A stretch of DNA of 64,000 nt from an uncultured Candidatus Rokubacteria bacterium. Lineage in GTDB: Bacteria; Methylomirabilota; Methylomirabilia; Rokubacteriales; CSP1-6. The DNA lies in NCBI GenBank assembly GCA_963771355.1, contig CAVYTA010000005.1:800001-864000 (forward strand), in the 5' to 3' direction. Positions 622-53,229 of this stretch are shown here, piece after piece. The position numbers were made by a program, and so were the translations under genes. Every line of letters begins with the position of its first letter. The stretch's first letter is position 1. The notes beneath the pieces are model-generated. The model had not been told where the DNA came from. It did not search any database and saw only the letters and a program-made list of their open reading frames with translations.

Positions 622-3196
<2,575 letters not shown>

Positions 3197-3208: not shown

Positions 3209-4636
3209 ATGGCCGACATCCGCCGCGAGAGCATGCGCATTGCCGGAGAGCACGTCGTCTCCGAGCGGGTCATCGAGGTCGAGAATCCGTGGAACGGTGC
3301 GCTGGTGGGCACGGTGCCCAAGGCCACCGTGGCCGACGTCCGGCGCGCCTTCGCCGCCGCGCGCGGCTTTCGCTCGCCGCTCTCCCGTCACGAGCGCTCC
3401 CTGATCCTCGCGCGCACCGCGGAGCGGCTTGCCGCCCGGCGGGAGGAAATCTCGGACCTCATCACCGCGGAGTCGGGCCTTTGCAAGAAGGACACGCTCT
3501 ACGAGGTGGGGCGCGCGGGTGACGTCTTCACCTTCGCCGCCCACGCCGCGCTCAGCGACGACAGCCAGACCTTCCCCTGCGACGTGAGCGCCCAGGGTCG
3601 GCGCCGGCGCATCTACACGCAGCGCGAGCCCCTGCGCGCCATCGCCGCCATCACCCCGTTCAACCACCCCCTCAACCAGGTGGCCCACAAGGTGGCGCCC
3701 GCCATCGCCACCAACAACAAGATGGTGCTCAAGCCGTCGGAGAAGACGCCGCTCACCGCGCTCCTCCTCGCCGACGTGCTCTACGACGTGGGACTGCCGC
3801 CCGCCATGTTCTCGGTGGTGACGGGCGACCCCGCCGAGATCGCGGACGAGCTCGTCACCAACGCCGACTCCGAGCTGATCACCTTCACCGGCGGGGTGGA
3901 GGTGGGCAAGGCCATCGCCGGCAAGCTGGGCTATCGCCGCGCCGTCCTCGAGCTGGGCGGCAATGACCCCCTCATCGTGATGGAGGACGCCGACCTCCAG
4001 GAGGCGTCCTCCCTGGCGGTGTCGGGCGCCTACCGGAACTCCGGCCAGCGCTGCACCGCGGTGAAGCGCATCCTCGTCCAGGAGTCGGTCGCCGCCCGCT
4101 TCGTGGACCTGCTGGTGGAGAAGACCCGGCTGGTGAAGTACGGCGATCCCATGGATCCCACCGTGGACATGGGCACCGTGATCGACGAGCGGGCGGCGCG
4201 CCGCTTCCAGTCCCTGGTGGAGGACGCGATGGGGCGCGGCGCCCGGCTCCTCTACGGCAACGAGCGGCGGGGCGCGCTCTATAGCCCCACCGTGCTCGAC
4301 CGCGTTCCCGCCGACTGTGAGCTGGTGGCGCGCGAGACCTTCGGCCCGGTGGCCCCCGTGATACGCTTCGGCGACATCGAGGAGGCGATCCGCATCGCCA
4401 ACGGGACCCCTTACGGCCTCTCCTCCGCGGTGTGCACCAATCGCTGGGACTGGATCACCCGCTTCGTGAGCGGGCTCGAGGTGGGCACGGTCAATGTCCG
4501 GGAAGTGCCCGGCTACCGGCTGGAGAGCTCGCCCTTCGGCGGGATCAAGGACTCGGGCCTGGGCTACAAGGAGGGCGTGCTCGAGGCGATGAAGAGCTTC
4601 ACCAACGTCAAGACCTACTCGCTGCCCTGGCCGTGA
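3209..4636 (+). CDS. phnY: Phosphonoacetaldehyde dehydrogenase
   Basis: ALDH motifs ITPFNHPLNQVAHK, LELGGND, NSGQRCTA, ETFGP, PFGGIKDSG; lies between phnA and phnW. Confidence 0.93.
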   Translation: MADIRRESMRIAGEHVVSERVIEVENPWNGALVGTVPKATVADVRRAFAAARGFRSPLSRHERSLILARTAERLAARREEISDLITAESGLCKKDTLYEVGRAGDVFTFAAHAALSDDSQTFPCDVSAQGRRRRIYTQREPLRAIAAITPFNHPLNQVAHKVAPAIATNNKMVLKPSEKTPLTALLLADVLYDVGLPPAMFSVVTGDPAEIADELVTNADSELITFTGGVEVGKAIAGKLGYRRAVLELGGNDPLIVMEDADLQEASSLAVSGAYRNSGQRCTAVKRILVQESVAARFVDLLVEKTRLVKYGDPMDPTVDMGTVIDERAARRFQSLVEDAMGRGARLLYGNERRGALYSPTVLDRVPADCELVARETFGPVAPVIRFGDIEEAIRIANGTPYGLSSAVCTNRWDWITRFVSGLEVGTVNVREVPGYRLESSPFGGIKDSGLGYKEGVLEAMKSFTNVKTYSLPWP

Positions 4637-7080
4637 TCTCGTCCGCGCGCGCCGTCATCATCGGCGGCGGCATCGTCGGCACCTCGGTCGCCTACCACCT
4701 CGCGCGACTGGGGTGGCGTGATGTCGTGCTGCTGGAGCAGGGGAGCCTCTCCGGCGGCACCACCTGGCATGCCGCCGGCCTCGTGGGCCAGCTCCGCTCC
4801 TCCGCGAATTTCACCCGCCTCATCCGCTACAGCGCGGAGCTCTACGAGCGGCTCGAGGCGGAGACCGGCAAGGCCACCGGCTTCAAGCGCTGCGGCAGCC
4901 TCTCGGTCGCGCGCACCGCCGAGCGCATGACCCAGCTCCGGCGCAATGCCTCGCTGGCGCGCTCCTACGGCATCGAGGCCCACGTGATCGGGCTCGACGA
5001 GGCCAAGCGCCGCTATCCGTTGCTGCACATCGACGACCTGGTGGGCGCGGTGTGGATTCCCTCCGACGGCAAGGCCAACCCCGCCGACATCACCCAGGCG
5101 CTCGCCACCGGCGCCCGCGCCGCCGGCGCCCGAATCTTGGAGAAGGTCGAGGTGAAGGGCGTGACGGTGACCGAGGGCCGCGTGAGCGGGGTGGAGACCG
5201 CGGAGGGCACCATCGCCACCGAGATCGCGGTGAACTGTGCGGGCATCTGGGCGCGGGAGCTGGGCCGCCGGAGCGGGGTCACCGTCCCGCTGCACGCCTG
5301 CGAGCACATGTACATGGTGACCGAGCCCATCGCGGGGGTGACGCCGGATCTGCCCGTCCTGCGCGATCCCGACGGCCACATCTATTTCAAGGAAGAGGTG
5401 GGCGGCATCCTCATGGGCGGCTTCGATCCCTGGGCCAAGCCCTGGGGCATGGGCGGCATTCCCGCCGACTTCTCCTTCGGTACGCTGCCGGAGGACTGGG
5501 ACAAGTTCGAGATCCTCATGCGCAATGCCATTCAGCGGGTGCCCGCGCTGGAGTCCGCGCCGGTGCGGCTCTTGATGAACGGCCCCGAGAGCTTCACCCC
5601 CGACAACTACTTCATCCTCGGTGAGGCCCCGGAGGTGCGGCGCTACTACGTCGGCGCGGGGTTCTGCTCGGGCGGCATCGCCGCCGCGGGCGGGGCGGGG
5701 CAGGCTCTGGCCCAGTGGATCGCGGACGACCGGCAGCCCATGGATCTCTGGCCCGCCGACATCCGGCGCTTCGCGTCCTTCCACGGAGATCCCGCCTTCC
5801 TGCGCGAGCGCGCCAGCGAGGGGGTGGGCGTCCACTACTTCGTGGCCTTCCCCAACCGCGAGCTCACCAGCGGGCGCGGCCTCCGGCGCTCCCCGCTCTA
5901 CGACCGGCTGGCCGCCAAGCGCGCCTGCTTCGGCGCCAAGATGGGCTGGGAGCGCGCCAACTGGTTCGCACCCGCCGGGGTGGCGCCGGTCACGGAGTAC
6001 TCCTTCGGCCGCCAGAACTGGTTCCCCTACTCGGCGGCCGAGCATCGGGCCGCGCGCGAGGCGGTGGCGCTGTTCGATCAGACGTCGTTCGGCAAGCTCC
6101 TGCTCCAGGGCCGGGACGCCGAGGCGGTGCTGCAGCGGCTCTGCGCCAATGACGTGGCGGTGGCGCCGGGGCGGGTCGTCTACACGGGGCTCCTGAACGA
6201 GCAGGGCACGTACGAGAGCGACCTCACCGTGACCCGACTGACCGGCGACACCTACTTGATCGTCACCGGCGCCGCGCAGACCACGCGCGATGCCCACTGG
6301 ATCCGCCGCGAGATCGGGCCCGACGCGCGCGCGACGCTCACCGACGTGACCGGCGCCTGGGCGGTGCTGGGGCTCATGGGGCCGGGCTCGCGCGCCCTCC
6401 TGTCCAGCGTCTCGGGCGCCCGGCTGGACAGTGCCGCCTTTCCCTTCGCCACCATGCAGGAGATCGCCATCGCGGGCGCGCCCGTGCGCGCGGCGCGCAT
6501 CACCTACGTCGGCGAGCTCGGCTGGGAGCTCTACGTGCCGGTGGAGTTCGCCGCGCGCGTGTACGAGGCGCTGGAGGCGGCGGGCGCGGAGTTCGGCTTG
6601 CTGGACGCCGGCTACTACGCTCTCGACTCGCTTCGCATGGAGAAGGCCTATCGGGCGTGGGGGCGCGAGCTCACGACCGATGACACGCCGCTGGAGGCGG
6701 GGCTCGGCTTCGCGGTGGCCTGGGACAAGCCGGGCGGCTTCCGGGGGCGCGACGCCCTCCTGCGCCGGCGGGACCAGCCGCTCACCAAGCGCCTGGTCAC
6801 CTTCGTGCTCGACGACCCCGAGGCGCTCCCGCTGGGCGACGAGGCCATCTTCCATGAGAACAACCTGGCCGGCTCGGTTACCTCCGCCGGCTACGGGCAT
6901 ACGCTGGGCCGGGCGGTCGTCATGGGCTATCTCCGGCTGCCGGAGGGAGCGCGCGGCGGGATCGACGCGCGCTTCGTGGCGGACGCGAAGTTCGAGCTGG
7001 AGATCGCGGGAGACCGTTTCACCGCGCGCGCGAGCCTGCGCGCGCCCTATGACCCGCAGGCGCTGCGGGTGAAGAGCTAG
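4633..7080 (+). CDS. FAD-dependent oxidoreductase of the dimethylglycine/sarcosine dehydrogenase type with a C-terminal GcvT (THF-binding) domain
   Basis: GTG start overlaps the phnY stop (GTGA); IIGGGIVG Rossmann motif, TTWHAAGL (covalent-FAD His motif), NGPESFTPD, YVGELGWELY, SLRMEKAY; 815 aa. Confidence 0.9.
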   Translation: MISSARAVIIGGGIVGTSVAYHLARLGWRDVVLLEQGSLSGGTTWHAAGLVGQLRSSANFTRLIRYSAELYERLEAETGKATGFKRCGSLSVARTAERMTQLRRNASLARSYGIEAHVIGLDEAKRRYPLLHIDDLVGAVWIPSDGKANPADITQALATGARAAGARILEKVEVKGVTVTEGRVSGVETAEGTIATEIAVNCAGIWARELGRRSGVTVPLHACEHMYMVTEPIAGVTPDLPVLRDPDGHIYFKEEVGGILMGGFDPWAKPWGMGGIPADFSFGTLPEDWDKFEILMRNAIQRVPALESAPVRLLMNGPESFTPDNYFILGEAPEVRRYYVGAGFCSGGIAAAGGAGQALAQWIADDRQPMDLWPADIRRFASFHGDPAFLRERASEGVGVHYFVAFPNRELTSGRGLRRSPLYDRLAAKRACFGAKMGWERANWFAPAGVAPVTEYSFGRQNWFPYSAAEHRAAREAVALFDQTSFGKLLLQGRDAEAVLQRLCANDVAVAPGRVVYTGLLNEQGTYESDLTVTRLTGDTYLIVTGAAQTTRDAHWIRREIGPDARATLTDVTGAWAVLGLMGPGSRALLSSVSGARLDSAAFPFATMQEIAIAGAPVRAARITYVGELGWELYVPVEFAARVYEALEAAGAEFGLLDAGYYALDSLRMEKAYRAWGRELTTDDTPLEAGLGFAVAWDKPGGFRGRDALLRRRDQPLTKRLVTFVLDDPEALPLGDEAIFHENNLAGSVTSAGYGHTLGRAVVMGYLRLPEGARGGIDARFVADAKFELEIAGDRFTARASLRAPYDPQALRVKS

Positions 7081-7090: not shown

Positions 7091-8200
7091 ATGGAGCCCT
7101 ATCTCCTGACGCCGGGACCGCTCACCACCTCGCTCACCACCAAGCAGGCGATGCTGCGCGACTGGGGCTCGCGGGACGTGGAGTTCATCCGCCTCAACGC
7201 CCGGGTGCGCGAGCGGCTGGTCGAGCTGGCGGGAGGAAGCGGCACCCATGTCTGCGTGCCGCTCCAGGGCAGCGGGACGTTCCTCGTGGAGGCCATGCTG
7301 GCGACCATGGTGCCCCCGGAGGGGAAGGTGCTCCTCCTCGTCAACGGCGCCTACGGCAAACGCATGGTCCGTATGTGCGAGTACCATCGCCGCGCCCATA
7401 CGGTGATCGAGGTGCCCGAGGACCACCCCGTGGATCCCGTGGCCGTCGACGCGGCGCTGGCGGCGGACCCCGCCATCACCCACGTGGCGGTGGTGCACTG
7501 CGAGACCACCTCGGGGGTGCTGAATCCGGTGGCCAGGGTCGCGGAGGTCGTCGCCCGGCGGGGCCGCCGGCTTCTCATCGACTCCATGAGCGCGTTCGGG
7601 GCCATTCCGCTGGATGCCGCGCGCATTCCCTTCGACGCCATGGTGTCCTCCGCGAACAAGTGCCTGGAAGGCGTGCCGGGCATGGGCTTCGGCATCATCC
7701 GTCGCACCGCGCTGGAGAGCGCCCGGGGCCAGTGCGGATCGCTCTCGCTGGACCTGCACGATCAGTGGACGGCCATGGAGAAGACCGGGCAATGGCGCTT
7801 CACGCCGCCCACCCATGTCATCGCCGCTCTGGACCAGGCGCTCACCGAGCATGCCGCGGAAGGGGGCGTGGAAGGACGGGGCGCCCGCTATGCGCGCAAC
7901 TGCGGCATTCTCGTCTCGGGGCTCCGCGCGCTCGGCTTCAAGACCCTGCTCCCGGACGCGCTGCAGGCGCCCATCATCGTGACGGTGCGGATGCCCGCGG
8001 ACCCCGCCTTTCACTTCGACGCCTTCTACGATCGGCTCGCCGAGCGCGGCTACGTGATCTATCCCGGCAAGCTCACCGTGGCCGACAGCTTCCGCATTGG
8101 CTGCATCGGGCGCCTGGGGGAGGCGGAGATGCACGGCGTGCTCGACGCCATCCGGGACATTCTCAAGGACATGGGCGTGAGCCGCTGCGGTCCGGCCTGA
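7091..8200 (+). CDS. phnW: 2-aminoethylphosphonate--pyruvate transaminase
   Basis: LLTPGPLTTS, DWGSRD, HCETTSG, DSMSAFG, SSANKCLEGVPG (PLP Lys), QWRFTPPTH, IYPGKLT. Confidence 0.95.
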   Translation: MEPYLLTPGPLTTSLTTKQAMLRDWGSRDVEFIRLNARVRERLVELAGGSGTHVCVPLQGSGTFLVEAMLATMVPPEGKVLLLVNGAYGKRMVRMCEYHRRAHTVIEVPEDHPVDPVAVDAALAADPAITHVAVVHCETTSGVLNPVARVAEVVARRGRRLLIDSMSAFGAIPLDAARIPFDAMVSSANKCLEGVPGMGFGIIRRTALESARGQCGSLSLDLHDQWTAMEKTGQWRFTPPTHVIAALDQALTEHAAEGGVEGRGARYARNCGILVSGLRALGFKTLLPDALQAPIIVTVRMPADPAFHFDAFYDRLAERGYVIYPGKLTVADSFRIGCIGRLGEAEMHGVLDAIRDILKDMGVSRCGPA

Positions 8201-8244: not shown

Positions 8245-9625
8245 TTGAAAAAATCCGAGTCCGTGCCCGGCGCCGATCCGAGCGAGCTGGAGGCGCTGAT
8301 CCGCAAGGGGGAGATCGACACCGTCCTCACCGTCTTCCCCGACCACCTCGGCCGGCTCCTGGGGAAGCGGGTGGTGGGGCGGTACTTCCTCGATCATGTC
8401 CTCGCCGACGGCGTGCATGCCTGCATCTATCTCTTCACGGTGGACATGGAGATGGAGCCCCTGCCGGGCTTCACGCTCACCTCGTGGGAGCGCGGCTACG
8501 GCGACATGAAGCTCGTGCCGGACCTTGGGACCTGGCGGCGCATCCCGTGGCTGTCCCGCACCGCGCTGGTGTTCTGCGACGTGTTCACCGAGGAGGGCGC
8601 GCCCATCGAGGAGGCGCCGCGGTGGGTGCTGCGCCGGCAGGTGGAGCGGGCGGCCAAGGCCGGCTACGTGGTGAAGACCGCCTCCGAGCTCGAGCTCTAT
8701 CTCTTCCGCGAGTCCTTCGACGAGGCGCGCGCGAAGCGCTACCTGGATCTCACTCCGGTGTCCGGCTACCGCGAGGACTACCACATCCTCCAGACCTCCA
8801 GGGAGGAGGGCCTGGTCCAGGCCATCCGCAATCACATGGAGGCGGCGCGGGTGCCGGTGGAGTTCTCCAAGGGCGAGTGGGGGAAGGGGCAGGAGGAGAT
8901 CAATCTCCGTTACGCGGAAGCGCTCGAGATGGCGGACCGCCACGCCCTCTACAAGCACGGCGTGAAGGAGATCGCCTGGCAGCAGGGCTGCCTCGGTGAC
9001 CTTCATGGCGAAGTACGACATGGGGGCGGCGGGCTCGTCCTGTCACGTCCACTCCTCGCTGTGGGACCGGCGGACGGGCAAGGGGCTCTTCGCCGCGCGG
9101 GGCTCGCGGCGGGGGACGCCGCTCTTCCAGCAGTGGCTGGCCGGGCAGATGGCGATGGCGCGGGACCTAGCACTCCTCTACGCGCCCACCGTCAACTCGT
9201 ACAAGCGCTATCAGGCGGGCTCCTTCGCTCCCACCCGCATCGCGGCGGGCTGGGACAACCGCACCTGCGGCTTCCGCCTCTGCGGCGAGGACGCCGGCTT
9301 CCGCGTGGAAAACCGCATCCCCGGCGCCGACGCCAATCCGTACCTGGCCTTCGCCGCCACCATCGCCGCGGGGCTCCACGGGATCGAGCGAAAGCTCCCG
9401 GCGCCGCGGGCCTACGAGGGCAATGCCTACGAGGATGCGAAGCTCTCGCAGGTGCCGAAGACCTTCCGCGAGGCGCTGGACACGCTGGACCGCTCGAAGG
9501 TGGCGCGCGAGGCCTTCGGCGCCCGCGTGGTGGAGCACTATCTCCGGCTGGGGCGACTCGAGCAGGAGGCCTTCGACCAGGTCGTCACCGACTGGGAGCT
9601 AAGTCGGCATTTCGAAAGGATCTGA
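8245..9625 (+). CDS. Glutamine synthetase-like gamma-glutamyl-amine ligase (GlnA4/PuuA-like) with an apparent +1 frameshift at ~8992
   Basis: N-half ASELELYLF, KGEWGKGQEEINL; C-half VTFMAK..GSSCHVHSSL, NSYKRY, DNRTCGFR, ENRIPGADANPYL. Removing one C at 8991-8992 gives a continuous 459-aa ORF. Confidence 0.85.
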
Positions 9626-9632: not shown

Positions 9633-10397
9633 ATGGCGGGACGACTCAAGGGCAAGGTGGCGCTGATCACGGGCGCCGGCATGGGCATGGGGCGCGAGGC
9701 CTCGGTGCTCTTCGCCGAGGAAGGCGCCCGCGTGGTGGTGGCGGACATCAACGCCGGGGCAGCCGCCGAGACGGTGGATCTGGTCAAGAAGGCCGACGGG
9801 CAGGCGGTCGCGGTGACCGGGGACGTGGCGGTGGAGGCCGACGTGAAGCGCATGATCGAGGAAGGCGTGGGCGTCTTCGGGGCCCTGCACGTCCTCTACA
9901 ACAACGCGGGCGTGCTGTGGAAGGACAAGGACCGCGGGGTGCTGGAGACCGACGGCGTCCAGTGGGACCGGGTGATGGGGATCAACCTCAAGTCGGTGTT
10001 CTGGGTGACCAAGCACGGCATCCCGCACCTGCGGGCGGCGGGCGGCGGCTCCATCATTCTGGTGGGCTCGGTGTCGGCGCTGGCCGGCTTCACGCGGGCC
10101 CAGGACGCCTATACCGCGGCCAAGGGCGCGCTGATCTCGCTCAACAAGTCGCTCGCCATCCAGTTCGCCAAGGACGGCATCCGCTCCAACGTGATTCATC
10201 CGGGGATTGTCGAGACCCCGCTGCAGGCCCCCTACCTCAATGACGAGCTGCGGGCCGAGTTCAAGACGGGCATCCCGCTGGGCCGCATCGGCCAGCCGCG
10301 GGACATCGCCTTTGCCGCCCTCTTCCTCGCCTCCGATGAGTCGAGCTTCATGACCGGCGCGGAGATGATCGTGGACGGCGGCTTCATGGCCCAGTAA
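9633..10397 (+). CDS. Short-chain dehydrogenase/reductase
   Basis: TGAGMGMG, NNAG, YTAAKG catalytic motif. Confidence 0.9.
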   Translation: MAGRLKGKVALITGAGMGMGREASVLFAEEGARVVVADINAGAAAETVDLVKKADGQAVAVTGDVAVEADVKRMIEEGVGVFGALHVLYNNAGVLWKDKDRGVLETDGVQWDRVMGINLKSVFWVTKHGIPHLRAAGGGSIILVGSVSALAGFTRAQDAYTAAKGALISLNKSLAIQFAKDGIRSNVIHPGIVETPLQAPYLNDELRAEFKTGIPLGRIGQPRDIAFAALFLASDESSFMTGAEMIVDGGFMAQ

Positions 10398-10431
10398 GAT
10401 CCAAACGCACGAACACATGGAGGAAGCACGC

Positions 10432-11448
10432 ATGCGGACGCGCAGCTCGTGGTTCACCGGCCTGGTGGCCGGCGTCGTCGCTCTCACCGTCCTCGCCGGC
10501 CCGGCCCTGGCCCAGAAGCAGGTGGTGGTGGTCTACACCGCCATCGAGAACGAGCAGATCACGGAGTACAAGAAGGCCTACGAGAAGTCCTTGCCCAACG
10601 TGGACGTGAAGATGCTGCGACTGTCCACCGGCGACATCGCGGCGCGGTTCATGGCGGAGAAGGACAACATGCAGGCGGACCTCATCTGGGGCGTGGGCGC
10701 CACCAACCTGCTGGTGTTCAAGAACGCGGGCCTCCTGGAGCCCTATGCCCCCAAGGGGCTGGAGAAGATCCAGCCGCTCTTCCGGGACAAGGCCAACCCG
10801 CCCTCCTGGGTCGGGATCGACATCTACATGTCCGCCTTCTGCTTCAACACCGAGGTGGGGAAGAAGAACAACCTGCCCAAGCCGGAGTCCTGGGCGGATC
10901 TCACCAAGCCCGTGTACAAGGGCCAGGTGGTGATGCCGAACCCGGCCAGCTCGGGCACGGGTTATCTCTCCGTCGCTTCCATCCTGCAGCGCATGGGCGA
11001 GGCCGAAGGGTGGAAGTATCTCGATGCCCTCAATGTGAACATCGCGGAGTACACCAAGTCCGGGTCCAAGCCCTGCAAGGACGCGGCGGCGGGCGAGCGC
11101 GGCGTCGGCGTGTCCTTCGAGTACGTGGCGCTCGAGATGAAGAAGAAGGGGAGCCCGGTGGAGATGGTGCTGCCCAAGGAGGGCTCCGGCTACGAGATGG
11201 AGGCCAACGCGCTGACCAAGAAGGGGGCCAAGAATCCCGCCGCCAAGCAGTTCCTGGACTGGGCGGCCAGCGACGAGGCCATGGCGCTCTACGCGAAGTA
11301 CTTCGCCGCCGTCGGCATCGCCGGCTACCCGGTGCCCGAGGGGCTGCCCAAGGACATCAGCAAGGTGGTCTATCCCAACGACTTCGACTGGTCGGCGAAG
11401 AATCGCGACCGCATCCTCGCCGAGTGGACCAAGCGGTACGCGAAGTAG
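10432..11448 (+). CDS. Putative 2-aminoethylphosphonate ABC transporter substrate-binding protein (PhnS2/AepX-like)
   Basis: Signal peptide, VYTAIE, STGDIAARFMAEKDN, MPNPASSGTG, YTKSGSKPC; GGAGG RBS before ATG 10432; phn context. Confidence 0.85.
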   Translation: MRTRSSWFTGLVAGVVALTVLAGPALAQKQVVVVYTAIENEQITEYKKAYEKSLPNVDVKMLRLSTGDIAARFMAEKDNMQADLIWGVGATNLLVFKNAGLLEPYAPKGLEKIQPLFRDKANPPSWVGIDIYMSAFCFNTEVGKKNNLPKPESWADLTKPVYKGQVVMPNPASSGTGYLSVASILQRMGEAEGWKYLDALNVNIAEYTKSGSKPCKDAAAGERGVGVSFEYVALEMKKKGSPVEMVLPKEGSGYEMEANALTKKGAKNPAAKQFLDWAASDEAMALYAKYFAAVGIAGYPVPEGLPKDISKVVYPNDFDWSAKNRDRILAEWTKRYAK

Positions 11449-11452: not shown

Positions 11453-13405
11453 ATGCCGAGCGCGGCGTCCGCGCCCCCTCCCCATGCCGTGGGGGAGGGC
11501 GCGGCCGCCTCTCTCGACCTCGACGCCGGCCTTCGCCTTCTCGGCTACGCGAGCTTCCGGCCGGGGCAGCGCGAGGCCATCGACACCCTGCTCGGCCGCG
11601 GTCGGCTGCTGCTGGTCGCGCCCACCGGCGGCGGCAAGAGCCTGATCTACCAGCTACCCGGCAGCCTGCTCTCCGGCACCAGCCTCGTCATCTCCCCCCT
11701 CGTGGCGCTCATGCACGACCAGGTCGCGGCGCTCACCGCCCGCGGCGTGGCCGCCACCTACCTGGCGGGGACGCTCACCCCGGAGGAGCTGCGCGGGCGG
11801 ATGGCGCGGCTGGGCGCGGGCGCATTCAAGCTCGCCTACGTGGCCCCGGAGCGTCTGGCCTTTCCGGGCTTCCGGGCCCTGGTGCGCGAGCTGGACTGCC
11901 CGCTGGTGGCGGTGGACGAGGCCCACTGCATCAGCGAGTGGGGCCACGACTTCCGCCCCGAGTACCTGGAGATCGGCGGGCTCCTCGCCGAGCTGCCGCG
12001 GGCCCGCGTGCTGGCCTGCACGGCCACCGCCACCCCGGTGGTGCGCGACGAGATCCTCGCCCGTCTCAATCTGCCCGCGGAGACGCCGCAGCTCGTCCGC
12101 GGATTCGCGCGGCCCAATCTGGGCCTGCGCGCGAGGGAGACGGATCACGCGCGCCAGCGCAGTCAGATGGTGGACGAAGCGCTCGCGGAGATGCTGGAGC
12201 GCCCGGGGGCGGGGCGGGGCACCGCCATCGTCTATGCCTCCACGCGCAAGTCGGCCGAGGAGGAAGGCGCGCGGCTCGCCGGCCTCGGCTGGCGCGTGGC
12301 CGTCTATCACGCGGGGCTGGCCCCCGCCGTGCGCGACCGGGCCCAGGGCCGCTTCGCCGCCGGGGAAGCGGAGATCGTCACCGCGACCAATGCCTTCGGC
12401 ATGGGCATCGACCGGCCCGACGTGCGCGCGGTGATCCACCTCGCGCCGCCGAGCTCGCTGGAGGCCTACTACCAGGAGGTGGGCCGCGCCGGGCGGGACG
12501 GTGCGCCCGCGGTGGGCCTGCTCTTCACCTCCTCGCGCGACCTCCCACTCCGTCGCGCCCTGCTCGAGCGGGGCAGCGAGGGCGCGCCGCCCCCGGCGCC
12601 CGAGGTGGTCGAGCACAAGTGGGGGCTGTTCCTCGAGCTGGTGCGGTGGGCGGAGGGCGGCTCCTGCCGTCACGACGCCATTCTCCGCTACTTCGGGGAC
12701 GAGGCGGAGACGCTGCATGGCTGCGGCCGCTGCGACGTCTGCCTCGCCCTCGCGGATCCCGCCGCCGCCGGCGCCGCGCTCGACGCGGAGGCGACCACGT
12801 TGGTGGTCCGCAAGGCGCTGTCCGGCGTGGCCCGCGTCCACGAGCGCTTCGGGCTCGGCACCGCGGTCAAGCTCGTCCACGGAGAGGCGGATCCCCGGCT
12901 GGAGCGGGCCGGGCTCACGCGCGTCCCCACCTTCGGCAATCTGCGCGAGCACGGGGAGGAGTGGATTCTCGGCGTGCTGCGCCGCTGCGTGGCCGCGGGC
13001 TGGGTGAGCTTCACCGGCGGGGACCGGCCGGTGGTGGTGCTCACCGACGCGGGCCGGGCGGTGATGAAGGGCGAGCGCCCGGCGCGCATCCTCCTGCCCC
13101 CGCTCGGCGGAGAACGCCGGCCGACGCGCGGCCGCCGTCCCGCGCGCGGCGCCGCCCCGGTGGCGGAGGACGCGGCGGGGCCGGCGACGGAGGCCTTGTT
13201 CGAGGCGCTGCGCCGGCATCGCCTGTCGCTGGCCCGCGCGGAGGGCGTGGCGCCCTTCATCATCGCCAGCGACCGGACGCTCCGGGACATCGCGGCCATC
13301 CGGCCGGCAACCCTGGACGACCTGCGGCGCGCCTACGGCATCGGCGAGCACAAGGTGGCCCGCTACGGGGCCGGCTTCCTCGAGGTGGTGGCCAGCCATG
13401 GCTAG
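11453..13405 (+). CDS. recQ: RecQ-family ATP-dependent DNA helicase
   Basis: PTGGGKS, VDEAHCISEWGHDFRPEY, TATAT, YYQEVGRAGRDG, Zn ligands CRH..CGRCDVC, winged helix, C-terminal HRDC (PFIIASDRTL..GIGEHK). Confidence 0.93.
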   Translation: MPSAASAPPPHAVGEGAAASLDLDAGLRLLGYASFRPGQREAIDTLLGRGRLLLVAPTGGGKSLIYQLPGSLLSGTSLVISPLVALMHDQVAALTARGVAATYLAGTLTPEELRGRMARLGAGAFKLAYVAPERLAFPGFRALVRELDCPLVAVDEAHCISEWGHDFRPEYLEIGGLLAELPRARVLACTATATPVVRDEILARLNLPAETPQLVRGFARPNLGLRARETDHARQRSQMVDEALAEMLERPGAGRGTAIVYASTRKSAEEEGARLAGLGWRVAVYHAGLAPAVRDRAQGRFAAGEAEIVTATNAFGMGIDRPDVRAVIHLAPPSSLEAYYQEVGRAGRDGAPAVGLLFTSSRDLPLRRALLERGSEGAPPPAPEVVEHKWGLFLELVRWAEGGSCRHDAILRYFGDEAETLHGCGRCDVCLALADPAAAGAALDAEATTLVVRKALSGVARVHERFGLGTAVKLVHGEADPRLERAGLTRVPTFGNLREHGEEWILGVLRRCVAAGWVSFTGGDRPVVVLTDAGRAVMKGERPARILLPPLGGERRPTRGRRPARGAAPVAEDAAGPATEALFEALRRHRLSLARAEGVAPFIIASDRTLRDIAAIRPATLDDLRRAYGIGEHKVARYGAGFLEVVASHG

Positions 13406-14543
13406 CCCGGCGGCGGCGAGCCCCCCCGTGGCTCGCCCGAGCACTGCGCGGCCCGCCGCCGTCGCGCTGGAGGGCATCGCCAAGAAGTTCGGCGTCTTCA
13501 TCGCGCTGCGCGGCGTCTCGCTCTCGGTGGACCCGGGCGAGTTCGTCTGCTTCCTGGGCCCCTCCGGGTGCGGGAAGACCACGCTCCTCCGCATCATCGC
13601 CGGGCTGGAGCGGCAGAACGCCGGCGCGGTGCTGATGGCCGGACGCGACGTCTCCGCCTTGCCCGCCGCCCAGCGCAACTACGGGATCGTCTTTCAGTCC
13701 TACGCCCTCTTTCCCAATCTCACCGTGGCCCGGAACGTGGGCTACGGGCTCGAGACCCGCAAGGCCGGCAAGCGGGAGATCGCCCGGCGCGTGGACGAGC
13801 TGCTCGACCTCGTGGGGCTCCGGCACCACCGGGAGAAGTACCCGGCGCAGCTCTCCGGCGGCGAGCAGCAGCGTATCGCCCTGGCCCGGGCGCTGGCGCC
13901 GTCGCCGGCGCTGCTGCTCCTCGACGAGCCGCTCTCCGCGCTGGACGCGCGGGTGCGGCAATCGCTGCGCCACGAGATCCGCACGCTGCAGCGGCGGCTC
14001 GGCATCACCACCATCATGGTGACGCATGACCAGGAAGAAGCGCTGGCCATGGCGGACCGCATCGTGGTGATGAACCACGGCGTGGTCGAGCAGGTGGGCC
14101 CGCCGGTCGAGGTCTACATGCGCCCGCGCTCGCCCTTCGTGGCCCGCTTCGTGGGCCAGATGAACTTTCTCGACGCGGTCGCGGGCCCGCGTCCCCGCTC
14201 GGCCCACATGGGCGCGGTGGAGCTGACCCTCCCCGCCGGCGGCGACCCGGAGACGATCGCCGCCGGCCCCGGCACCCCGCTCATCCTGGCCATTCGCCCG
14301 GAGGAAATCGTGGTGGGGCCCGCCGCGCAGGGGGCGCCCAACCGCCTCATCACCCGCATCCGGAGCATTCAATTCCTCGGCTCCTTCACGCGGCTGGTGC
14401 TGATGCTGCCCGGCGACGGTGAGCGCGTGCTCGAGTGCGACGTGGCGGCCACCGCCTTCGCCGAGCTGGGCGTGGCGGAGGGTGGCGCGCTACCCCTGGC
14501 GCTCCCTCCCGAATCACTGCGCGTGTTTCGCAAGGAAAGCTAG
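13398..14543 (+). CDS. ABC transporter ATP-binding protein (putative AEP transporter, PhnT2-like)
   Basis: GPSGCGKT, VFQSYALF, LSGGEQQR, LDEP, VTHD, C-terminal TOBE-like region. Confidence 0.9.
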   Translation: MASPAAASPPVARPSTARPAAVALEGIAKKFGVFIALRGVSLSVDPGEFVCFLGPSGCGKTTLLRIIAGLERQNAGAVLMAGRDVSALPAAQRNYGIVFQSYALFPNLTVARNVGYGLETRKAGKREIARRVDELLDLVGLRHHREKYPAQLSGGEQQRIALARALAPSPALLLLDEPLSALDARVRQSLRHEIRTLQRRLGITTIMVTHDQEEALAMADRIVVMNHGVVEQVGPPVEVYMRPRSPFVARFVGQMNFLDAVAGPRPRSAHMGAVELTLPAGGDPETIAAGPGTPLILAIRPEEIVVGPAAQGAPNRLITRIRSIQFLGSFTRLVLMLPGDGERVLECDVAATAFAELGVAEGGALPLALPPESLRVFRKES

Positions 14544-14546: not shown

Positions 14547-16283
14547 GTGGACGTCGTGACCCGCGAGACCGGCGCCACCATCCCGGACCGGGTGGTACGG
14601 CATCGCCTCGGGCGTGAGGACGTGATCCGTGTCGGGCTCGCGGTCGCGCTCGGCCTCGTGCTGTACCTCTTCATCCTGCTCCCCATGGTCAAGATGATCT
14701 GGCGGAGCCTGCTCGACGGCAACGGCCAATGGGTGGGTCTCGCCAACTACGCCCGCTACTTCGGCACGCCCGCCATCGCGGCGTCCATCACCAACAGTCT
14801 CTACGTGGCGGTGGTGTCCATGGTGCTCACGGTGGGGCTGGCCTTCGGCTACGCCTACGCGCTCACCCGGACGCGCATGCCGGTCCAGGGCTTCTTTCGC
14901 GTGGTGGCCATGCTGCCCATCTTCGCGCCGTCCCTGGTGCAGGCCTTCGCCTTCGTCTACGTGTTCGGCAACAACGGCATCTTCACGCGCGCCACCGGCG
15001 TGAACGTGGGGATCTACGGCGCCAAGGGCATCGTCCTCGCGGAGGTGTTCTACTGCTTTCCCCACGCGCTCCTCATTCTCATCGCCGCGCTCGCCGCCAC
15101 CGACGCCCGCCTCTACGACGCCGCCCGCACGCTGGGCGCCTCGTCGCCCAAGACCTTCCTCACCGTGACCCTCCCCGGCGCGAAGTTCGGCCTGGTGAGC
15201 GCCTGCTTCGTGGTCTTCACCACCGTCATCACCGACTTCGGCGCTCCCAAGGTGATCGGCGGGAAGTTCTCGGTGATGGCCACCGAGATCTACAATCAGG
15301 TCTCGGGCCAGCAGAACTTCACCATGGGGGCGACGGTGTCGGTGGTGCTCCTGATCCCGGCCATCCTCGCCTTCGTGGTGGACCGGATCGTGCAGCGCCG
15401 CCAGTACGCGCTGGTCACCGCCTCCGCGCGGCCGCTGGTGCCGGCGCCGCGGCCCAGCCGGGACTGGGCCGCCACCGTCTACTGCCTCCTCGTCGCCCTG
15501 GTGATCGCGGGCATCTATGCCGTCATCCTGGCGGCGTCGCTGGTGCACCGCTGGCCGTACAACCTCGGGCTCACGCTGAAGCACTATGCGTTCGACACCG
15601 TGGGCGGCTACACGCCGCTCTGGAACAGCGTGCAGGTGGCGCTGTGGACGGCGGGGCTGGGGACGGTATTGACCTTCGGCGGCGCGTACGTGGTGGAGAA
15701 GTGCCGCCCGCCCGCGCGCGGAGTGCTCTACCTCCTGTCCATCCTGCCGGTGTCCATCCCCGGCATGGTGCTGGGTCTCGCCTACATCTTCACCTTCAAC
15801 GCGCCCGGCAGCCCGCTCAACCTGCTGTACGGGACGCTCGCCATCCTCGTGGTCTCCAATGTCATCCACTACTTCACGGTGGGCTTCCTCACCGCCACCA
15901 CCGCGCTGAAGCAGATGGACGCGGAGTTCGAGAACGTGTCCGCGTCGCTGGGGGTGCCCTTCTACCGGACCTTCTGGCGGGTGACGGTGCCGATGGCGCT
16001 GCCCTCCATCGTGGCCATCAGCATGTACTTCTTTCTCAACGCCATGGTGACCCTGTCGGCGGTGGTGTTCCTGGTGGCGCCGGGGACCGAGCTGGCCGCG
16101 GTCGCAGTGCTCCTGATGGACGATGCGGGCGACACCGCGCAGGCGGCCGCCATGTCGGTGCTCATCATCGGGACCGGCCTCGGCGTGCGGCTCCTGTACT
16201 GGCTGGCCATGAAGCGCGTGACGCGGCGAACCCAGGCGTGGACGCAGCCCGGCGAGCGGCCGGCTGCCGGAGGACCGACATGA
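14547..16283 (+). CDS. Fused two-module ABC permease (putative AEP transporter, PhnU2-like)
   Basis: Two EAA-like loops (LYDAARTLGAS, FENVSASLGVP), TDFGAPKVIGG, many TM segments. Confidence 0.88.
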   Translation: MDVVTRETGATIPDRVVRHRLGREDVIRVGLAVALGLVLYLFILLPMVKMIWRSLLDGNGQWVGLANYARYFGTPAIAASITNSLYVAVVSMVLTVGLAFGYAYALTRTRMPVQGFFRVVAMLPIFAPSLVQAFAFVYVFGNNGIFTRATGVNVGIYGAKGIVLAEVFYCFPHALLILIAALAATDARLYDAARTLGASSPKTFLTVTLPGAKFGLVSACFVVFTTVITDFGAPKVIGGKFSVMATEIYNQVSGQQNFTMGATVSVVLLIPAILAFVVDRIVQRRQYALVTASARPLVPAPRPSRDWAATVYCLLVALVIAGIYAVILAASLVHRWPYNLGLTLKHYAFDTVGGYTPLWNSVQVALWTAGLGTVLTFGGAYVVEKCRPPARGVLYLLSILPVSIPGMVLGLAYIFTFNAPGSPLNLLYGTLAILVVSNVIHYFTVGFLTATTALKQMDAEFENVSASLGVPFYRTFWRVTVPMALPSIVAISMYFFLNAMVTLSAVVFLVAPGTELAAVAVLLMDDAGDTAQAAAMSVLIIGTGLGVRLLYWLAMKRVTRRTQAWTQPGERPAAGGPT

Positions 16284-32373: not shown

Positions 32374-33538
32374 ATGCCCCATGACCTCTGGTACCTCGAC
32401 GATCGAGCAGCGGGCCATCCGGGACCTGGCGCGGGAGATCGCGCGGGAGCGCATCGCCCCCCTCGCCGCGCGGGTGGACGAGACCGAAGAATATCCCGCG
32501 GAGCAGATCCAGCGGCTGGGCGCCCAGGGGCTGATGGGGCTGCACGTCCCCGAAGAGTACGGCGGCAGTGATGCCGGCGCGCTGGCCTTCTGCCTCGCCG
32601 CGGAGGAGATCGCCGCCGCCTGCGCCGCCACCTCCACCATCTTCCTCGTCCAGAACCTCGGCGGGTACCCCATCATCCTCGCCGGGAACGCCGAGCAGAA
32701 GAAGCGCTTCCTTCCCCGCCTGGCCGCCGGCGAGATCACCGCGGCCTTCTCGCTGTCCGAGTCCGGCTCCGGCTCGGACGCGGCGGGGATGCAGTGCGCG
32801 GCGGTGCGCAAAGGCGACCGCTACGTCGTCAACGGCTCGAAGATGTGGGTGACCAACGGCTCGCACGCCGGCGTGCTCACCGTCTTCGTGAGCACCGACC
32901 GGGGCCGGCGCGGCCGCGGCGTGACCGCGCTGCTGGTGGAGCCCGGCACCAGGGGCTTCAGCGTGGGGAAGCACGAGAAGAAGCTCGGCATCCGCGGCAG
33001 CCCCACCGTCGCGCTGCACTTCACCGACTGCGAGATCCCCGTGGAGAATCGCCTGGGCGAGGAGAACGAGGGCTTCCGCATCGCCATGCGCACGCTGGAG
33101 CAGTCGCGTCCCACCATCGGCGCGCAGGCGGTGGGTATCGCCCAGGCCGCACTGGACGCCGCGGTGGGCTATGCCCGGGAGCGCCGTTCCTTCGACCAGC
33201 CCATCGCCGCCTACCAGGGCATCCAGTTCATGCTGGCGGACATGGCGATGGCGGTGCATACCTCGCGGCTCGCCGTCCACCACGCGGCGGCACTGATGGA
33301 TCGGGGCGCGGCCGGCACCGCGTTCGAGGCGTCCGTGGCCAAGTGCATGGCCTCGGACACCGCGATGAAGGTGACCACGGACGCGGTGCAGATCTTCGGC
33401 GGCTATGGCTACACGCGGGAATTCCCGGTGGAGCGCTACATGCGCGACGCCAAGATCACCCAGATCTACGAGGGGACCAACCAGATCCAGCGTCTCGTGA
33501 TCGCGCGGGAGCTGCTGGGCGAAGGAGACCAGAGATGA
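32374..33538 (+). CDS. Acyl-CoA dehydrogenase (likely +1 indel near 32404; alternative in-frame ATG at 32381)
   Basis: [41 protein letters not shown]. Removing one base gives the N-terminus [18 protein letters not shown]. Confidence 0.9.
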
Positions 33539-34814
33539 GCCGGCCCAAGGGCATCACGCGAGTCCCCCGCCGCAACTTCCTCAAGGGCGCCGCCGCCGGC
33601 GCCGCCGTGCTCGGTTTCCCGATGCCGCTGCGCGCCCAGGCCCCCGTCTTCAAGGTGGGGGTCGTCCATCCCGTGACCGGCCCGCTCGCGGAGCCGGGCC
33701 AGGCCTGCCGGCTGGGCGCCACCATGGCCGCGGAGGCCATCAATGCCGCCGGGGGCATCAAGGCCATGGGCGGCGCGAAGCTCGAGCTGATCTTCGGCGA
33801 TACGCAGACCAAGCCGGATATCGGGCGCACCGAGGCGGAGCGCGTCATCAATCAGGGCGCCCAGATGCTCATGGGCTCGTTCGACTCGGGCAGCACGGCG
33901 GCCATGGTGCCCGTGGTCCAGCAGCGGCGGGTGCCCTTCCTGGTGGACATCGCCGCCGCCGATCCCATCACCGCCAACGTGGCCAAGGCGGTGAAGGAGG
34001 GGCAGCAGAAGGTCCAGTACGTCTACCGCAACTTCCCCACCGGCATCTCCTTCGGGAGCAAGGCGGTGACATACTTCACCGAGATCTTCAAGGAGGCCGG
34101 CGTCGCGCCCAAGCGGGTGGTGCTGATGTACTGCAACGATCTCTTCGGCCAGAACGACGCCAAGGGGTTCCAGGCCGGGTACGCCGCCGCCAAGCCCGTC
34201 GTGGGAGATCGTGGACGTGATCCCGTGGCCGGAGCCGCCCGCAGGATCTCTCCACCGAGGTGTCCCGCGCCAAGGCGGCCAGGCCCGACATCATCGCGCC
34301 GATCACGCGGCCGGCCTCGGCCCAGCTCCTGCTCCCCGAGATCCGCAAGCAGCGGCTGGAGATCATGGGCATCGTGGGCCCGGGCAGCCCGGGCCTCTAC
34401 GAGGCGGGCCAGCTCGCCGTGCTCAAGGACGATCTCGAGCTCGTGATGGCCGCATGCCATGGGCGAACTTCAAGAATCCGCGGACCCAGCGGGTGGCGGA
34501 GGAATATCAGAAGCGATCGAGCGGGAAGACGTTCGACACCAACTCCGGCTACTCCTACGACGGGATGTTCGTCATCGCGGACGTGCTGGAACGGGCCAAG
34601 TCCACGGATCCCGACGTCATCGTGGACGCGATCAAGAAGACCAACTACGGCGCCGGCCTGATGCAGTACGCGGGCGCCGATCGTCTTCAACGACCTCGGC
34701 GACAACCCCAATGCCGTCACCACCATGATCCAGATCCTCGGCCAGAAGCCGGTCGCAGTGTGGCCCAAGGAGGCGGCGCTGCAGAAGTTCGTGTTCCCGC
34801 GTCCCAAGCGTTGA
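33535..34814 (+). CDS. Liv-type ABC substrate-binding protein with Tat signal, broken by about four single-base indels
   Basis: RRNFLKG Tat motif, [18 protein letters not shown]; frame jumps near 34196, 34239, 34451 and 34676 restore a 425-aa protein ending FVFPRPKR*. Confidence 0.75.
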
Positions 34815-34841
34815 CGGGTCGCCGTCGCGGGACCCGCTGAG

Positions 34842-44680: not shown

Positions 44681-45439
44681 GTGAAAGGTCGTCCACCGCG
44701 CTATCACCAGATCGCCCAGAGCTTGCGCGAGCGCATCGGCTCGGGGCAGCTCGCGCCCGGTGTGCGCCTGGACAATCAGCGCCGGCTCGCGCAGGAGTTC
44801 GGCGTCACCCTCATGACGCTGCGCCATGCCCTCGAGGTGCTGGAGCGCGACGGCCTCATCGCGCGGCGGCACGGGCTCGGCACCTTCGTGTCCACCCGCT
44901 CCGTCGAGTACGACATCTTGCAGCTCCGCACCTTCGCCGGCGACCTCTCCGCGCAGGGCGAGGACGTGGCGACGCGCTTTCTCCGTAGCCAGTTCGAGAG
45001 TGCCGATCGCGGCGTGGCCCGCGCGCTCGGCGCGCCGCCGGGCGCCCGCGTGCTCGCGCTGGAGCGGCTGCGCCTGGTGGCGGGCCGGCCCACCAGCTTC
45101 CAGGCTTCCTATCTGGCGCCCGGGCTCGGCGAGGAAGCGGCCAAGGCCGACCTCCGCGTCACCCCGCTGCGCCAGGTGCTGGCCTTCAAGCTCGGCATCG
45201 AGATCGCCTCCGCGCGCGAGACGGTGTCCGCGGTGCCGCTGGAGGTGCGCGCGGCGCGGGAGCTCGGCTGCCCCGCGGGCATGGCCTCGTTCCGCTCCGA
45301 CCGGGTGTCCGTCGCCGCCGACGGCACCGCGGTAGTCTACGATCGCGTGTTCATTCCGGGTGACCGCTTCCGGATCACCCGGGACCTTCGGTACGGCCAG
45401 GTCAACCGCGGCGACAGCCCAGAGGAGATCGAGTCTTGA
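44681..45439 (+). CDS. GntR-family (HutC/UTRA) transcriptional regulator
   Basis: YHQIAQSLRERI..LAQEFGVTLMTLRHAL..GLGTFV wHTH plus a UTRA-like C-terminus. Confidence 0.9.
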   Translation: MKGRPPRYHQIAQSLRERIGSGQLAPGVRLDNQRRLAQEFGVTLMTLRHALEVLERDGLIARRHGLGTFVSTRSVEYDILQLRTFAGDLSAQGEDVATRFLRSQFESADRGVARALGAPPGARVLALERLRLVAGRPTSFQASYLAPGLGEEAAKADLRVTPLRQVLAFKLGIEIASARETVSAVPLEVRAARELGCPAGMASFRSDRVSVAADGTAVVYDRVFIPGDRFRITRDLRYGQVNRGDSPEEIES

Positions 45440-46218
45440 AGATTTTCGTGATGGTGAAGCAAGTGCCCGACACCGCCACCCAGATGAAGATCAGCAGCGG
45501 CGATCCCAAGGCGATCGAGACCGCCGGCATCACCTGGATCGTGTCTCCCTACGACGAGTTCGCCATCGAGGAGGCGCTCCGCATCAAGGAGAAGCGCGGC
45601 CAGGGCGAGGTGGTGGCGGTGACGCTGGGGCCCGACCGGGCGAAAGAGGCGCTGCGCTCCTGCCTGGCCATGGGCGCCGACCGGGCTGTCCACCTGCTCG
45701 ATTCCGCCTGGGACGGGGGGGACACGCTGACCACCGCGCGCGCGATCGCGGCGCTGCTCAAGCAGGAGGGGCCCGCGCTGGCGGTGTTCGGCCGGCAGGC
45801 CATCGACGACGACATGGGCGCGGTGCCGGCGCAGGTGGCGGAGCTCCTGGGCTGGCCCTGCGCCTCCTGGATCATGGAGGAGGCGGTGGACGCGGGCGGC
45901 ACCTCGGTGCGCGTGGCGCGCCAGGTGGAGGGCGGTCTCGAGGTGTTCGACCTGCCGCTGCCCGCGGTGGTCTCGGCGCAGAAGGGGCTGAACGAGCCCC
46001 GCTATCCCACGCTGAAGGGGATCATGGGCGCCAAGAAGAAGGAGATCAAGGACGTGAAGGGGGCCGATCTCGGGCTCGCCCCGGAGCCGCCGGCGTTGAC
46101 CGTGGTCACCCTCGAGCCGCTGCCCGCGCGGCCGCCGGGACGGATCATCCAGGGCGAGGTCGCCGACGCCGCCAAGGAGCTCGTCCGCGCGCTGCGCGAA
46201 GACGCCAAGGCCATCTGA
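45436..46218 (+). CDS. etfB: Electron transfer flavoprotein beta subunit
   Basis: KQVPDT, PYDEFAIEEAL, AMGAD, GRQAIDDD, NEPRY. Confidence 0.93.
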   Translation: MKIFVMVKQVPDTATQMKISSGDPKAIETAGITWIVSPYDEFAIEEALRIKEKRGQGEVVAVTLGPDRAKEALRSCLAMGADRAVHLLDSAWDGGDTLTTARAIAALLKQEGPALAVFGRQAIDDDMGAVPAQVAELLGWPCASWIMEEAVDAGGTSVRVARQVEGGLEVFDLPLPAVVSAQKGLNEPRYPTLKGIMGAKKKEIKDVKGADLGLAPEPPALTVVTLEPLPARPPGRIIQGEVADAAKELVRALREDAKAI

Positions 46219-46293
46219 GAACGGTAATGGTGATGCGGTGACCAACCGCAACGTGAACAAACTCGACATCTAAGCGAGGCGAAAGAGACAGAC

Positions 46294-47283: not shown

Positions 47284-47303
47284 TTGATCTGGACTGAGAG
47301 GGT

Positions 47304-48455: not shown

Positions 48456-48467
48456 CGGAGGACACGA

Positions 48468-50120
<1,653 letters not shown>

Positions 50121-50135
50121 GAGGGAGAGAGAGCC

Positions 50136-51206: not shown

Positions 51207-51219
51207 CCAGGGAGATCCC

Positions 51220-51630
51220 ATGGATTGCGTGTTCTGCAAGATCCGGGACGGGCAGATCCCCTCGTTCAAGATCCACGAGGACGAGCGCACCCTCACGTTC
51301 ATGGACATCAACCCGCTCAACTCTGGACACTGCCTGGTGGTGACCAAGGCGCACGCGGCCACCATCCACGAATCCGACGTGGAAGACCTCAAGGCGATCA
51401 TGGTTGCGGCCAAGAAGGTGGCGGCGGCCATCCAGCACGCGCTCAAGCCGGATGGGCTCAACCTGCTCCAGGCCAATGGGGGCGCCGCCTTCCAGTCGGT
51501 GGCGCACTTCCATCTCCACCTCATCCCGCGCTGGAACGGCGACGGCAAGGGCTTCGACTGGAAGCTCGTGCCCGGCAACCGTGACCAGATCATGAAGACC
51601 GGGGAGCGTTTGCGCGGGCTCCTGAAGTGA
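51220..51630 (+). CDS. HIT family hydrolase
   Basis: [19 protein letters not shown] histidine triad. Confidence 0.93.
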
Positions 51631-51644
51631 CGAAGCGCCGACGC

Positions 51645-52049: not shown

Positions 52050-52065
52050 TCGCCGAGGGGCCGAG

Positions 52066-53211: not shown

Positions 53212-53229
53212 GCGGTGAGGGGAACGAAC

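Follow-up and report, generated by a model that had tools for sequence, protein, structure and literature searches.

A dimethylglycine dehydrogenase-type flavoprotein gene recurrently linked to phosphonate genes encodes a candidate N-methyl-aminoethylphosphonate demethylase

The established route of 2-aminoethylphosphonate (AEP) degradation to acetate and phosphate is composed of three enzymes, PhnW (AEP:pyruvate transaminase), PhnY (phosphonoacetaldehyde dehydrogenase), and PhnA (phosphonoacetate hydrolase). The characterised full-length members compared here of the flavoprotein family with DAO and GcvT domains, i.e. dimethylglycine dehydrogenase (DMGDH), dimethylglycine oxidase (DMGO), and 4-methylaminobutyrate oxidase (MabO, from Arthrobacter nicotine plasmids), are removers of methyl groups, and the substrate of MabO is a secondary amine longer than sarcosine. 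In the chemistry of this family, the flavin half oxidises the N-methyl bond and the GcvT half hands the carbon to tetrahydrofolate (THF) (PMC5082570). Mono-, di-, and trimethyl-AEP are natural compounds, and PhnW is unable to use N-methyl-AEP (PMC10590968). Here we describe a gene for an 815-amino acid (aa) protein of this family (hereafter the DAO-GcvT gene), located between phnY and phnW in a stretch of 64,000 nucleotides (the window; positions 800,001 to 864,000 of contig CAVYTA010000005.1, assembly GCA_963771355.1) from an uncultured Candidatus Rokubacteria bacterium.

The closest described enzymes with respect to gene context are PbfB, PbfC, and PbfD. Like the 815-aa protein, they are encoded by ancillary genes in phnWX and phnWYA clusters, and they share the PF01266 flavin domain and the proposed substrate with it. 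According to the main text of PMC10590968, PbfC and PbfD convert N-methyl-AEP into phosphonoacetaldehyde and methylamine as observed by nuclear magnetic resonance (NMR), with non-covalent flavin adenine dinucleotide (FAD) and without formaldehyde, and dimethyl-AEP is used only by PbfD1, and weakly. TmpA and TmpB also degrade an N-methylated AEP, trimethyl-AEP (PMC10590968), but these are iron oxygenases that cleave the carbon–phosphorus (C–P) bond and free glycine betaine, and are unrelated to the 815-aa protein. In the literature searched, the Pbf names run PbfA, PbfB, PbfC, PbfD, and PbfF, and no PbfE was found.

The DAO-GcvT gene is an open reading frame at 4633-7080 on the + strand with a GTG start, carried by a Methylomirabilota soil bacterium (genome of 5.5 Mb, 70% G+C; closest named relatives, Methylomirabilota of the Rokubacteria). 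The start overlaps the phnY stop within GTGA at 4633-4636, and the phnW ATG is located at 7091, 10 nt past the end of the frame, in agreement with the arrangement given by the initial annotation. Four Pfam domains, DAO (residues 7-362), FAO_M (367-420), GCV_T (422-694), and GCV_T_C (719-807), were all identified above cut-off, and the WHAAG motif occupies residues 45-49. The AlphaFold model based on an alignment of 51 sequences reached a pLDDT of 90.5 (a single-sequence model with a pLDDT of 33 was discarded). By fold search the model gave template modelling (TM) scores of 0.94 (rat DMGDH) and 0.90 (DMGO), with 32-33% identity in the structural alignment, and the best solved relatives were rat and human DMGDH and Arthrobacter DMGO.

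Upon alignment with the PDB chains, H46, H225, and Y251 corresponded to H48, H225, and Y259 of DMGO, which would place H46 at the position of the covalent FAD histidine and H225/Y251 at that of the catalytic dyad. D530 corresponded to DMGO D552, anchored by the D552A chain 3gsi, and E628 to the Glu of the DMGO sequence YVGELGWE; D530 and E628 are thereby the predicted folate site, E658, the Glu counterpart in DMGO, being presumably a folate-site residue. The His/Tyr dyad of the family is named in PMC5082570. H225, Y251, D530, and E628 are conserved in 56/56 representatives of the clade described below, and H46 in 54/56 (two gaps). A48 and I349 map, by our own mapping, to the Ala and Ile of DMGDH, unlike the Pro and Val of DMGO, and are probably oxygen-gate residues of the dehydrogenase type. 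As judged from its sequence, the 815-aa protein is thus a flavoprotein of the dimethylglycine/sarcosine dehydrogenase type with flavin, catalytic, and folate residues intact, and the assignment to this family made at the outset holds. DMGDH, sarcosine dehydrogenase, and DMGO (4P9S and 4PAB from rat, 5L46 from human, and 1PJ5) have the same four-domain build and fold, but differ in the pocket loops (GQLR at 52-55 and DGK at 145-147 in the 815-aa protein, TYFH and DGH in DMGDH, FQTN and DGL in DMGO) and in that the gene for the 815-aa protein lies in a phosphonate operon.

The phn genes within this operon, called as elsewhere in this study by the curated NCBIfam cut-offs (domains by Pfam), are phnA (1931..3196, +; TIGR02335, 593 bits against a cut-off of 408), phnY (3209..4636, +; TIGR03250, 816 bits against 636), and phnW (7091..8200, +; TIGR02326, 490 bits against 401). 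A phn gene was located within 10 kb of the DAO-GcvT gene at 63 of 80 genome loci (the best 80 of 272 confirmed), with phnW, phnA, phnY, or phnX at 57, and at 40 of 80 metagenome loci (the best 80 of 379, with a Steroidobacteraceae member as query), with an enzyme gene at 37; the loci were picked by likeness, mostly from Methylomirabilota and rhizobia with many kin among them, and the counts are not independent. Among the 40 unlinked metagenome loci, 31 have a flank shorter than 4 kb. At least 10 gene orders were recognised around the DAO-GcvT gene (G), with phnYA as well as with phnX: phnA-phnY-G-phnW, phnA-G-phnW, G-phnW-phnX, phnW-G divergent from phnAY, phnAY-G divergent from phnW, phnWAY-transporter-DeoR-G, DeoR-G-LysR-phnWAY, phnWAY-G-pbfA-pbfF, phnWAY-G-phnS2, DeoR-G divergent from phnWAY, and DeoR-G-phnWAY. 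In Sinorhizobium meliloti 1021, an orthologue with 62% identity, at about 1060555-1062984 of pSymB, stands beside the phnWAY cluster.

The linkage was also observed from the side of phnW. Seven of 61 related genomes carry PhnW over the cut-off, and the DAO-GcvT gene is directly upstream in all seven. By a plasmid search that started from phnW, for which 4 of 113 matches were examined at that step, the gene was detected in Ruegeria AD91A and Shinella but not in Haematobacter or Azospirillum. From the class of an Ensifer genome, 151 genomes were sampled evenly, and 28 of them carry PhnW. A DAO-GcvT gene lies no further than 10 kb from phnW in four of these 28, and adjoins pbfA or phnS2 in two others; Fisher tests on this sample (18/37 vs 10/114) are confounded by kinship and genome size and were not used as proof. 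Among 10 genomes with an unlinked copy, eight carry PhnW over the cut-off elsewhere, one a PhnW-like gene beside phnA, and one neither. As a control, the sister branch (57-63% identity) was examined, and phnW, phnA, and phnY were absent from 8/8 loci (11-20 kb), yet a PhnA match was present in all eight genomes. Members of this branch, with Arg at position 147 (L116, L119, L122, L123, L103, L117, L216), are repeatedly located near a gene of the phosphotriesterase family. Since the linkage recurs in other phyla, it is not due to chance; the recurrent link between the DAO-GcvT gene and phn genes is real, and the arrangement is not peculiar to the host genome.

The same survey bears on the possibility that the enzyme is an ordinary demethylase of sarcosine, dimethylglycine, N-methyltaurine, or a betaine product, which hitchhikes in an island for scavenging of osmolytes and head groups. 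It is the sole full-length family member in the host genome, its relatives bear database names such as 'sarcosine dehydrogenase' and '4-methylaminobutanoate oxidase', and eight of the 80 genome loci are unlinked in spite of at least 4 kb on both sides. In S. meliloti and S. medicae, the copy is located between taurine and phn clusters together with its own DeoR regulator, and in Aminobacter, Shinella, and Ensifer it adjoins a Rieske oxygenase and a second GcvT enzyme, as in a betaine demethylation module. However, taurine neighbours occur only in Sinorhizobium among the loci seen, the sister branch shows no link (0/8), and translational coupling in phn operons of unrelated lineages, the diversity of gene orders, and recruitment from separate branches (see below) all speak against simple hitchhiking, which we regard as improbable.

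In the phylogenetic tree, the 815-aa protein groups within a clade whose marker is K147, with a support of 0.98 (0.97 in a tree of 59 sequences; all supports are FastTree local supports), and the 21 clade members included in an IQ-TREE analysis of 40 sequences (without bootstrap values) stay together. K147 is present in 56/56 clade members and in 3/136 outsiders. The initial annotation had proposed that phn-linked GcvT oxidoreductases form one clade, but this did not hold. The copies of L240 (phnW-phnA-phnY-G), L241 (phnX...phnW-pbfA-G), L244 (pbfA-G), and L238 (phnS2-G) have Gln at position 147 and belong to other branches, and that of L124, linked to phnS2T2U2, is also outside the K147 clade. 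On these trees, the phn-linked GcvT enzymes are recruits from several branches, and no single pocket residue marks them. Such repeated recruitment from separate branches argues for a functional link to phosphonates, and may be compared with the convergent origin of PbfB, PbfC, and PbfD.

Two other groups of relatives have different neighbours. A sub-clade nested within the K147 clade and carrying a DAK motif (L201:1044-10751, L187, L200, L202, L204, L206) is divergent from genes for an amino-acid permease, a choline-kinase-like protein, and a short-chain dehydrogenase (SDR), and has no phn genes nearby. A GntR regulator also accompanies it, and one of the loci encodes SurE. A more distant branch (41-43%) adjoins genes for a PhnW-like protein and an enzyme of the alkaline-phosphatase superfamily in many order-level relatives. 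This three-gene module, seen at L112:8209-13073 (G046) as well as in roughly a dozen order-level relatives, consists of a PhnW-like transaminase (below cut-off), the alkaline-phosphatase-superfamily enzyme, and the distant DAO-GcvT enzyme; the second of these is about 32% identical to PhnA, no PhnA match over the search threshold was detected in those genomes, and the module is possibly a second route for a phosphonate or a phosphate ester.

These neighbours are relevant to the proposal that the substrate is an N-methylated ethanolamine or phosphoethanolamine from phospholipid head groups, i.e. a free alcohol or a phosphate ester, which may share importers and regulons with phosphonates; the enzyme might also take both kinds of substrate. 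The choline-kinase-like phosphotransferase, permease, and SurE next to the nested sub-clade agree with this proposal, as do a kinase or an inositol-monophosphatase-family gene beside more distant members, and the distant branch that adjoins a PhnW-like gene and one of the alkaline-phosphatase superfamily, where no PhnA passed the search threshold. In the window operon itself, phnW is followed by a glutamine-synthetase-like amine glutamylase (8245..9625, +; Pfam Gln-synt_C in two frames) and an accompanying SDR (9633..10397, +; Pfam). The structures nearest to this glutamylase are 11zs and 5dm3, the latter of which we take to be the ethanolamine glutamylase of Chromohalobacter. Together with the SDR, the glutamylase resembles an ethanolamine route of Streptomyces (PMC6529630), and genes for a glutamylase and an aldehyde dehydrogenase precede the unlinked copies of L058 and L059, in L058 also with an Fe-alcohol dehydrogenase. 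The glutamylase–SDR pair is, however, restricted to a few relatives of the host genome (the same order in L031, L035, L038, and L056), neither a kinase nor a phosphatase is encoded in the window operon, and most linked loci adjoin enzymes of C–P pathways, including pbfA and pbfF that act on hydroxy-AEP. A head-group substrate is therefore considered unlikely.

The relationship to PbfC was examined separately. In Azospirillum B510, the phnW-phnX-pbfA cluster holds a single DAO gene (about 410 aa), which was taken as PbfC, and its product is 31% identical to the 815-aa protein over 389 residues of the flavin half. On this alignment the 815-aa protein is not PbfC, as the initial annotation had maintained, and it scored 59 bits against the PbfD model TIGR03364 (cut-off, 285). 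PbfC is a single-domain protein, whereas the 815-aa protein adds a folate half, with AEP and methylene-THF as the predicted products. No PbfC orthologue (at least 38%) was detected in 221 loci besides its own, PbfB and PbfD not being searched in this way, and the host genome contains neither a PbfC-like gene nor a PbfD over the cut-off. The best matches of PbfC in five pbfF-bearing genomes of Ensifer, Shinella, and Mesorhizobium show 30-36% identity, all within frames of 814-926 aa, and the cluster of Shinella zoogloeoides includes pbfA, pbfF, and two GcvT-type genes while the single-domain PbfC is absent.

In Table 1 of the 2025 paper on PbfF (PMC12366243), 'pbfC' is entered for Ensifer adhaerens and for Shinella zoogloeoides, two species in which only GcvT-type genes were found here. 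The simplest reading is that the long GcvT-type genes were probably labelled 'pbfC' in that table, even though its strains differ from those analysed here; because of these labels, the phn association is probably already in print. The folate half and demethylation are not described in the literature searched, and the main text of PMC10590968 does not contain the words folate and GcvT; its supplement may list long proteins as PbfC.

Taken together with this label, the observations raise the possibility that the enzyme acts like PbfC, cleaving the C–N bond on the ethyl side to yield phosphonoacetaldehyde and methylamine with the folate half idle. The cleavage by PbfC and PbfD seen by NMR (PMC10590968) is a precedent, and the DAO-GcvT gene takes the slot of pbfC, as is apparent from phnX...phnW-pbfA-G of L241 vs phnW-phnX-pbfC-pbfA of Azospirillum (L218). 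The long GcvT proteins that are the best matches of PbfC in the five rhizobial genomes, and the two species listed with 'pbfC', point in the same direction. The similarity, however, is limited to 31% in the flavin half, D530 and E628 of the folate half are conserved in 56/56 members, and the 815-aa protein retains the histidine of the covalent site, whereas FAD of PbfC is non-covalent. In addition, methyl removal is the reaction of DMGDH, DMGO, and MabO. Cleavage of the PbfC type is thus given a small probability.

On balance, the probable function of the 815-aa enzyme is N-demethylation of N-methyl-AEP, and perhaps also of dimethyl-AEP, onto THF to provide AEP for PhnW, the substrate being deduced from the gene context. 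In this scheme, an aminophosphonate would be imported by PhnS2T2U2, as suggested by the transporter family. The histidyl-bound FAD would then oxidise the N-CH3 bond at the H225/Y251 site, and the one-carbon unit would be transferred to THF in the GcvT half to form 5,10-methylene-THF, as expected from the family chemistry and from the presence of D530 and E628. AEP would finally be processed by PhnW, PhnY, and PhnA to acetate and phosphate. The substrate, the direction of cleavage, and the use of folate are those that we infer for this enzyme, and FolD is present in the host genome. Monomethyl-AEP is more likely to be the main substrate, because it is the common natural form and the genome has no PbfC or PbfD to handle it, while two rounds on dimethyl-AEP are possible.

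A family member of the Arthrobacter tobacco-root plasmid, encoded in the order purU-gene-folD, is 39.5% identical to the 815-aa protein over 812 residues, and its purU and folD neighbours suggest that it is MabO. Owing to its activity on a longer amine, MabO provides a precedent for substrates longer than sarcosine. It has the same build, but forms a separate branch of the tree, acts on a carboxylate, and is encoded beside purU and folD, neither of which adjoins the DAO-GcvT gene in the window.

Several observations weigh against N-demethylation of methyl-AEP. Each of the three FAD enzymes characterised from AEP clusters cleaves the other C–N bond and frees methylamine (PMC10590968, main text), and N-methyl-AEP is one carbon longer than sarcosine and carries a phosphonate. 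The counts of linked loci were obtained from related genomes, as mentioned above, and the nested sub-clade adjoins choline-kinase-like and permease genes instead of phn genes. K147 fails as a phosphonate signature, since in the evenly drawn sample Gln replaces it in four copies that are linked to phn genes, and one copy with Lys belongs to a genome without PhnW. R55 is likewise only suggestive, being present in 84/136 outsiders; by the primer sequence it corresponds to position 54 of glycine oxidase, at which a change from Ala to Arg belongs to a variant adapted to glyphosate (PMC3818420). A PhnY match was absent in 5/5 tested Methylomirabilota genomes with the phnA-G-phnW order (L032, L036, L037, L043, L053), an order shared by many members of this phylum, leaving the downstream path from phosphonoacetaldehyde to PhnA there unexplained. 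A PhnX search in five genomes gave no match, nor did its controls, and was given no weight. Finally, no family match to ETF-QO was obtained in the host genome (G000) or in one other Methylomirabilota genome (G072), while ETF-QO is present in 4/4 proteobacterial carriers of the DAO-GcvT gene.

With respect to the electron acceptor, the initial annotation had pointed to an etfBA pair, which indeed lies at 45436-47283, 38 kb from the DAO-GcvT gene. It is the only etfBA of the genome and belongs to an operon (window 45436-54018) that continues with two acyl-CoA dehydrogenases, methylmalonyl-CoA mutase, a class IV aminotransferase, and enoyl-CoA hydratase. As the only copy, in a distant housekeeping operon of acyl-CoA metabolism and in a genome where ETF-QO was not found, the pair was not accepted as a dedicated partner, and the role assigned to it is unsupported.

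Judging from sequence and context, the DAO-GcvT enzyme is a real ancillary enzyme that recurs in AEP clusters; it comes from a known family and probably has a new substrate. Methylated AEPs are common natural phosphonates, and the known ancillary enzymes free their nitrogen as methylamine and handle dimethyl-AEP poorly. If the proposed reaction takes place, the methyl carbon would be kept and phosphonate turnover would be tied to one-carbon metabolism, the conserved gene beside the model phnWAY cluster of S. meliloti 1021 would be explained, and some genes labelled pbfC would carry out a different chemistry.

In Aminobacter, Ensifer, and Shinella (L136:7313-16406; L079, L073, L074, L222), genes for a Rieske oxygenase, a ferredoxin reductase, and the second GcvT enzyme (45%) are located beside the unit of DeoR and the DAO-GcvT gene and the phn cluster. 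This set is a candidate for the demethylation step from trimethyl- to dimethyl-AEP, or else is a betaine module. A wider proposal, which is speculative and rather doubtful at present, is that the phn-linked enzymes represent an undescribed class of THF-dependent N-methyl-AEP demethylases, recruited several times and carried under the 'pbfC' label, which together with the Rieske and second GcvT enzymes would complete a phosphonate counterpart of the betaine ladder. The ladder would lead in these three genera from trimethyl- through dimethyl- and monomethyl-AEP to AEP; di- and trimethyl-AEP would gain a hydrolytic fate, and bacteria of soil and sea, S. meliloti 1021 among them, would feed the methyl groups of these compounds into one-carbon metabolism. 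A TauD-family dioxygenase, perhaps a hydroxylase like TmpA or PhnY*, is encoded divergently from phnA and from the start of the DAO-GcvT gene in L125:822-3036 (G030).

As to the remaining genes of the window operon, the intergenic gaps from phnA to the last SDR range from -8 to +44 nt, a spacing that fits a single operon including the DAO-GcvT gene, for which Pfam, PDB alignments, model, and conservation were combined in the assignment given above. A scan of the locus for promoters and terminators gave no signal above shuffles. Contigs from two runs of RNA libraries (one study) cover parts of phnA, phnY, the DAO-GcvT gene, and phnW, and one of these spans the phnY junction; DNA may be included in such libraries and the contigs were not counted as evidence of expression. 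The frame of the glutamylase is broken by one surplus base near 8989, which is missing in four relatives and likewise in contigs from three public runs, and is most likely an assembly error. The glutamylase was also considered as the methylamine ligase GmaS, but this was rejected because its scores of 143 and 75 bits fall short of the cut-off (470) and because it is distant from GmaS structures.

Downstream of the SDR are located the transporter genes phnS2 (10417..11448, +; putative AEP ABC transporter binding protein; TIGR03261, 429 bits against a cut-off of 393), phnT2 (13398..14543, +; ABC ATPase; TIGR03265, 482 bits against 458), and phnU2 (14547..16283, +; ABC permease; TIGR03262, 692 bits against 593). 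A RecQ-family helicase (11453..13405, +; Pfam, TIGR00614) is inserted between phnS2 (gap of 4 nt) and phnT2 (-8 nt), as it is in four relatives; no link to the pathway is apparent and no role in it is proposed. Elsewhere in the window, positions 174-620 encode a stand-alone RNase III catalytic domain of 148 aa, in which the RNA-binding domain is absent, and a branched-chain amino-acid binding protein at 33535-34840 is present as two short frames (303 and 128 aa), perhaps by an assembly frameshift.

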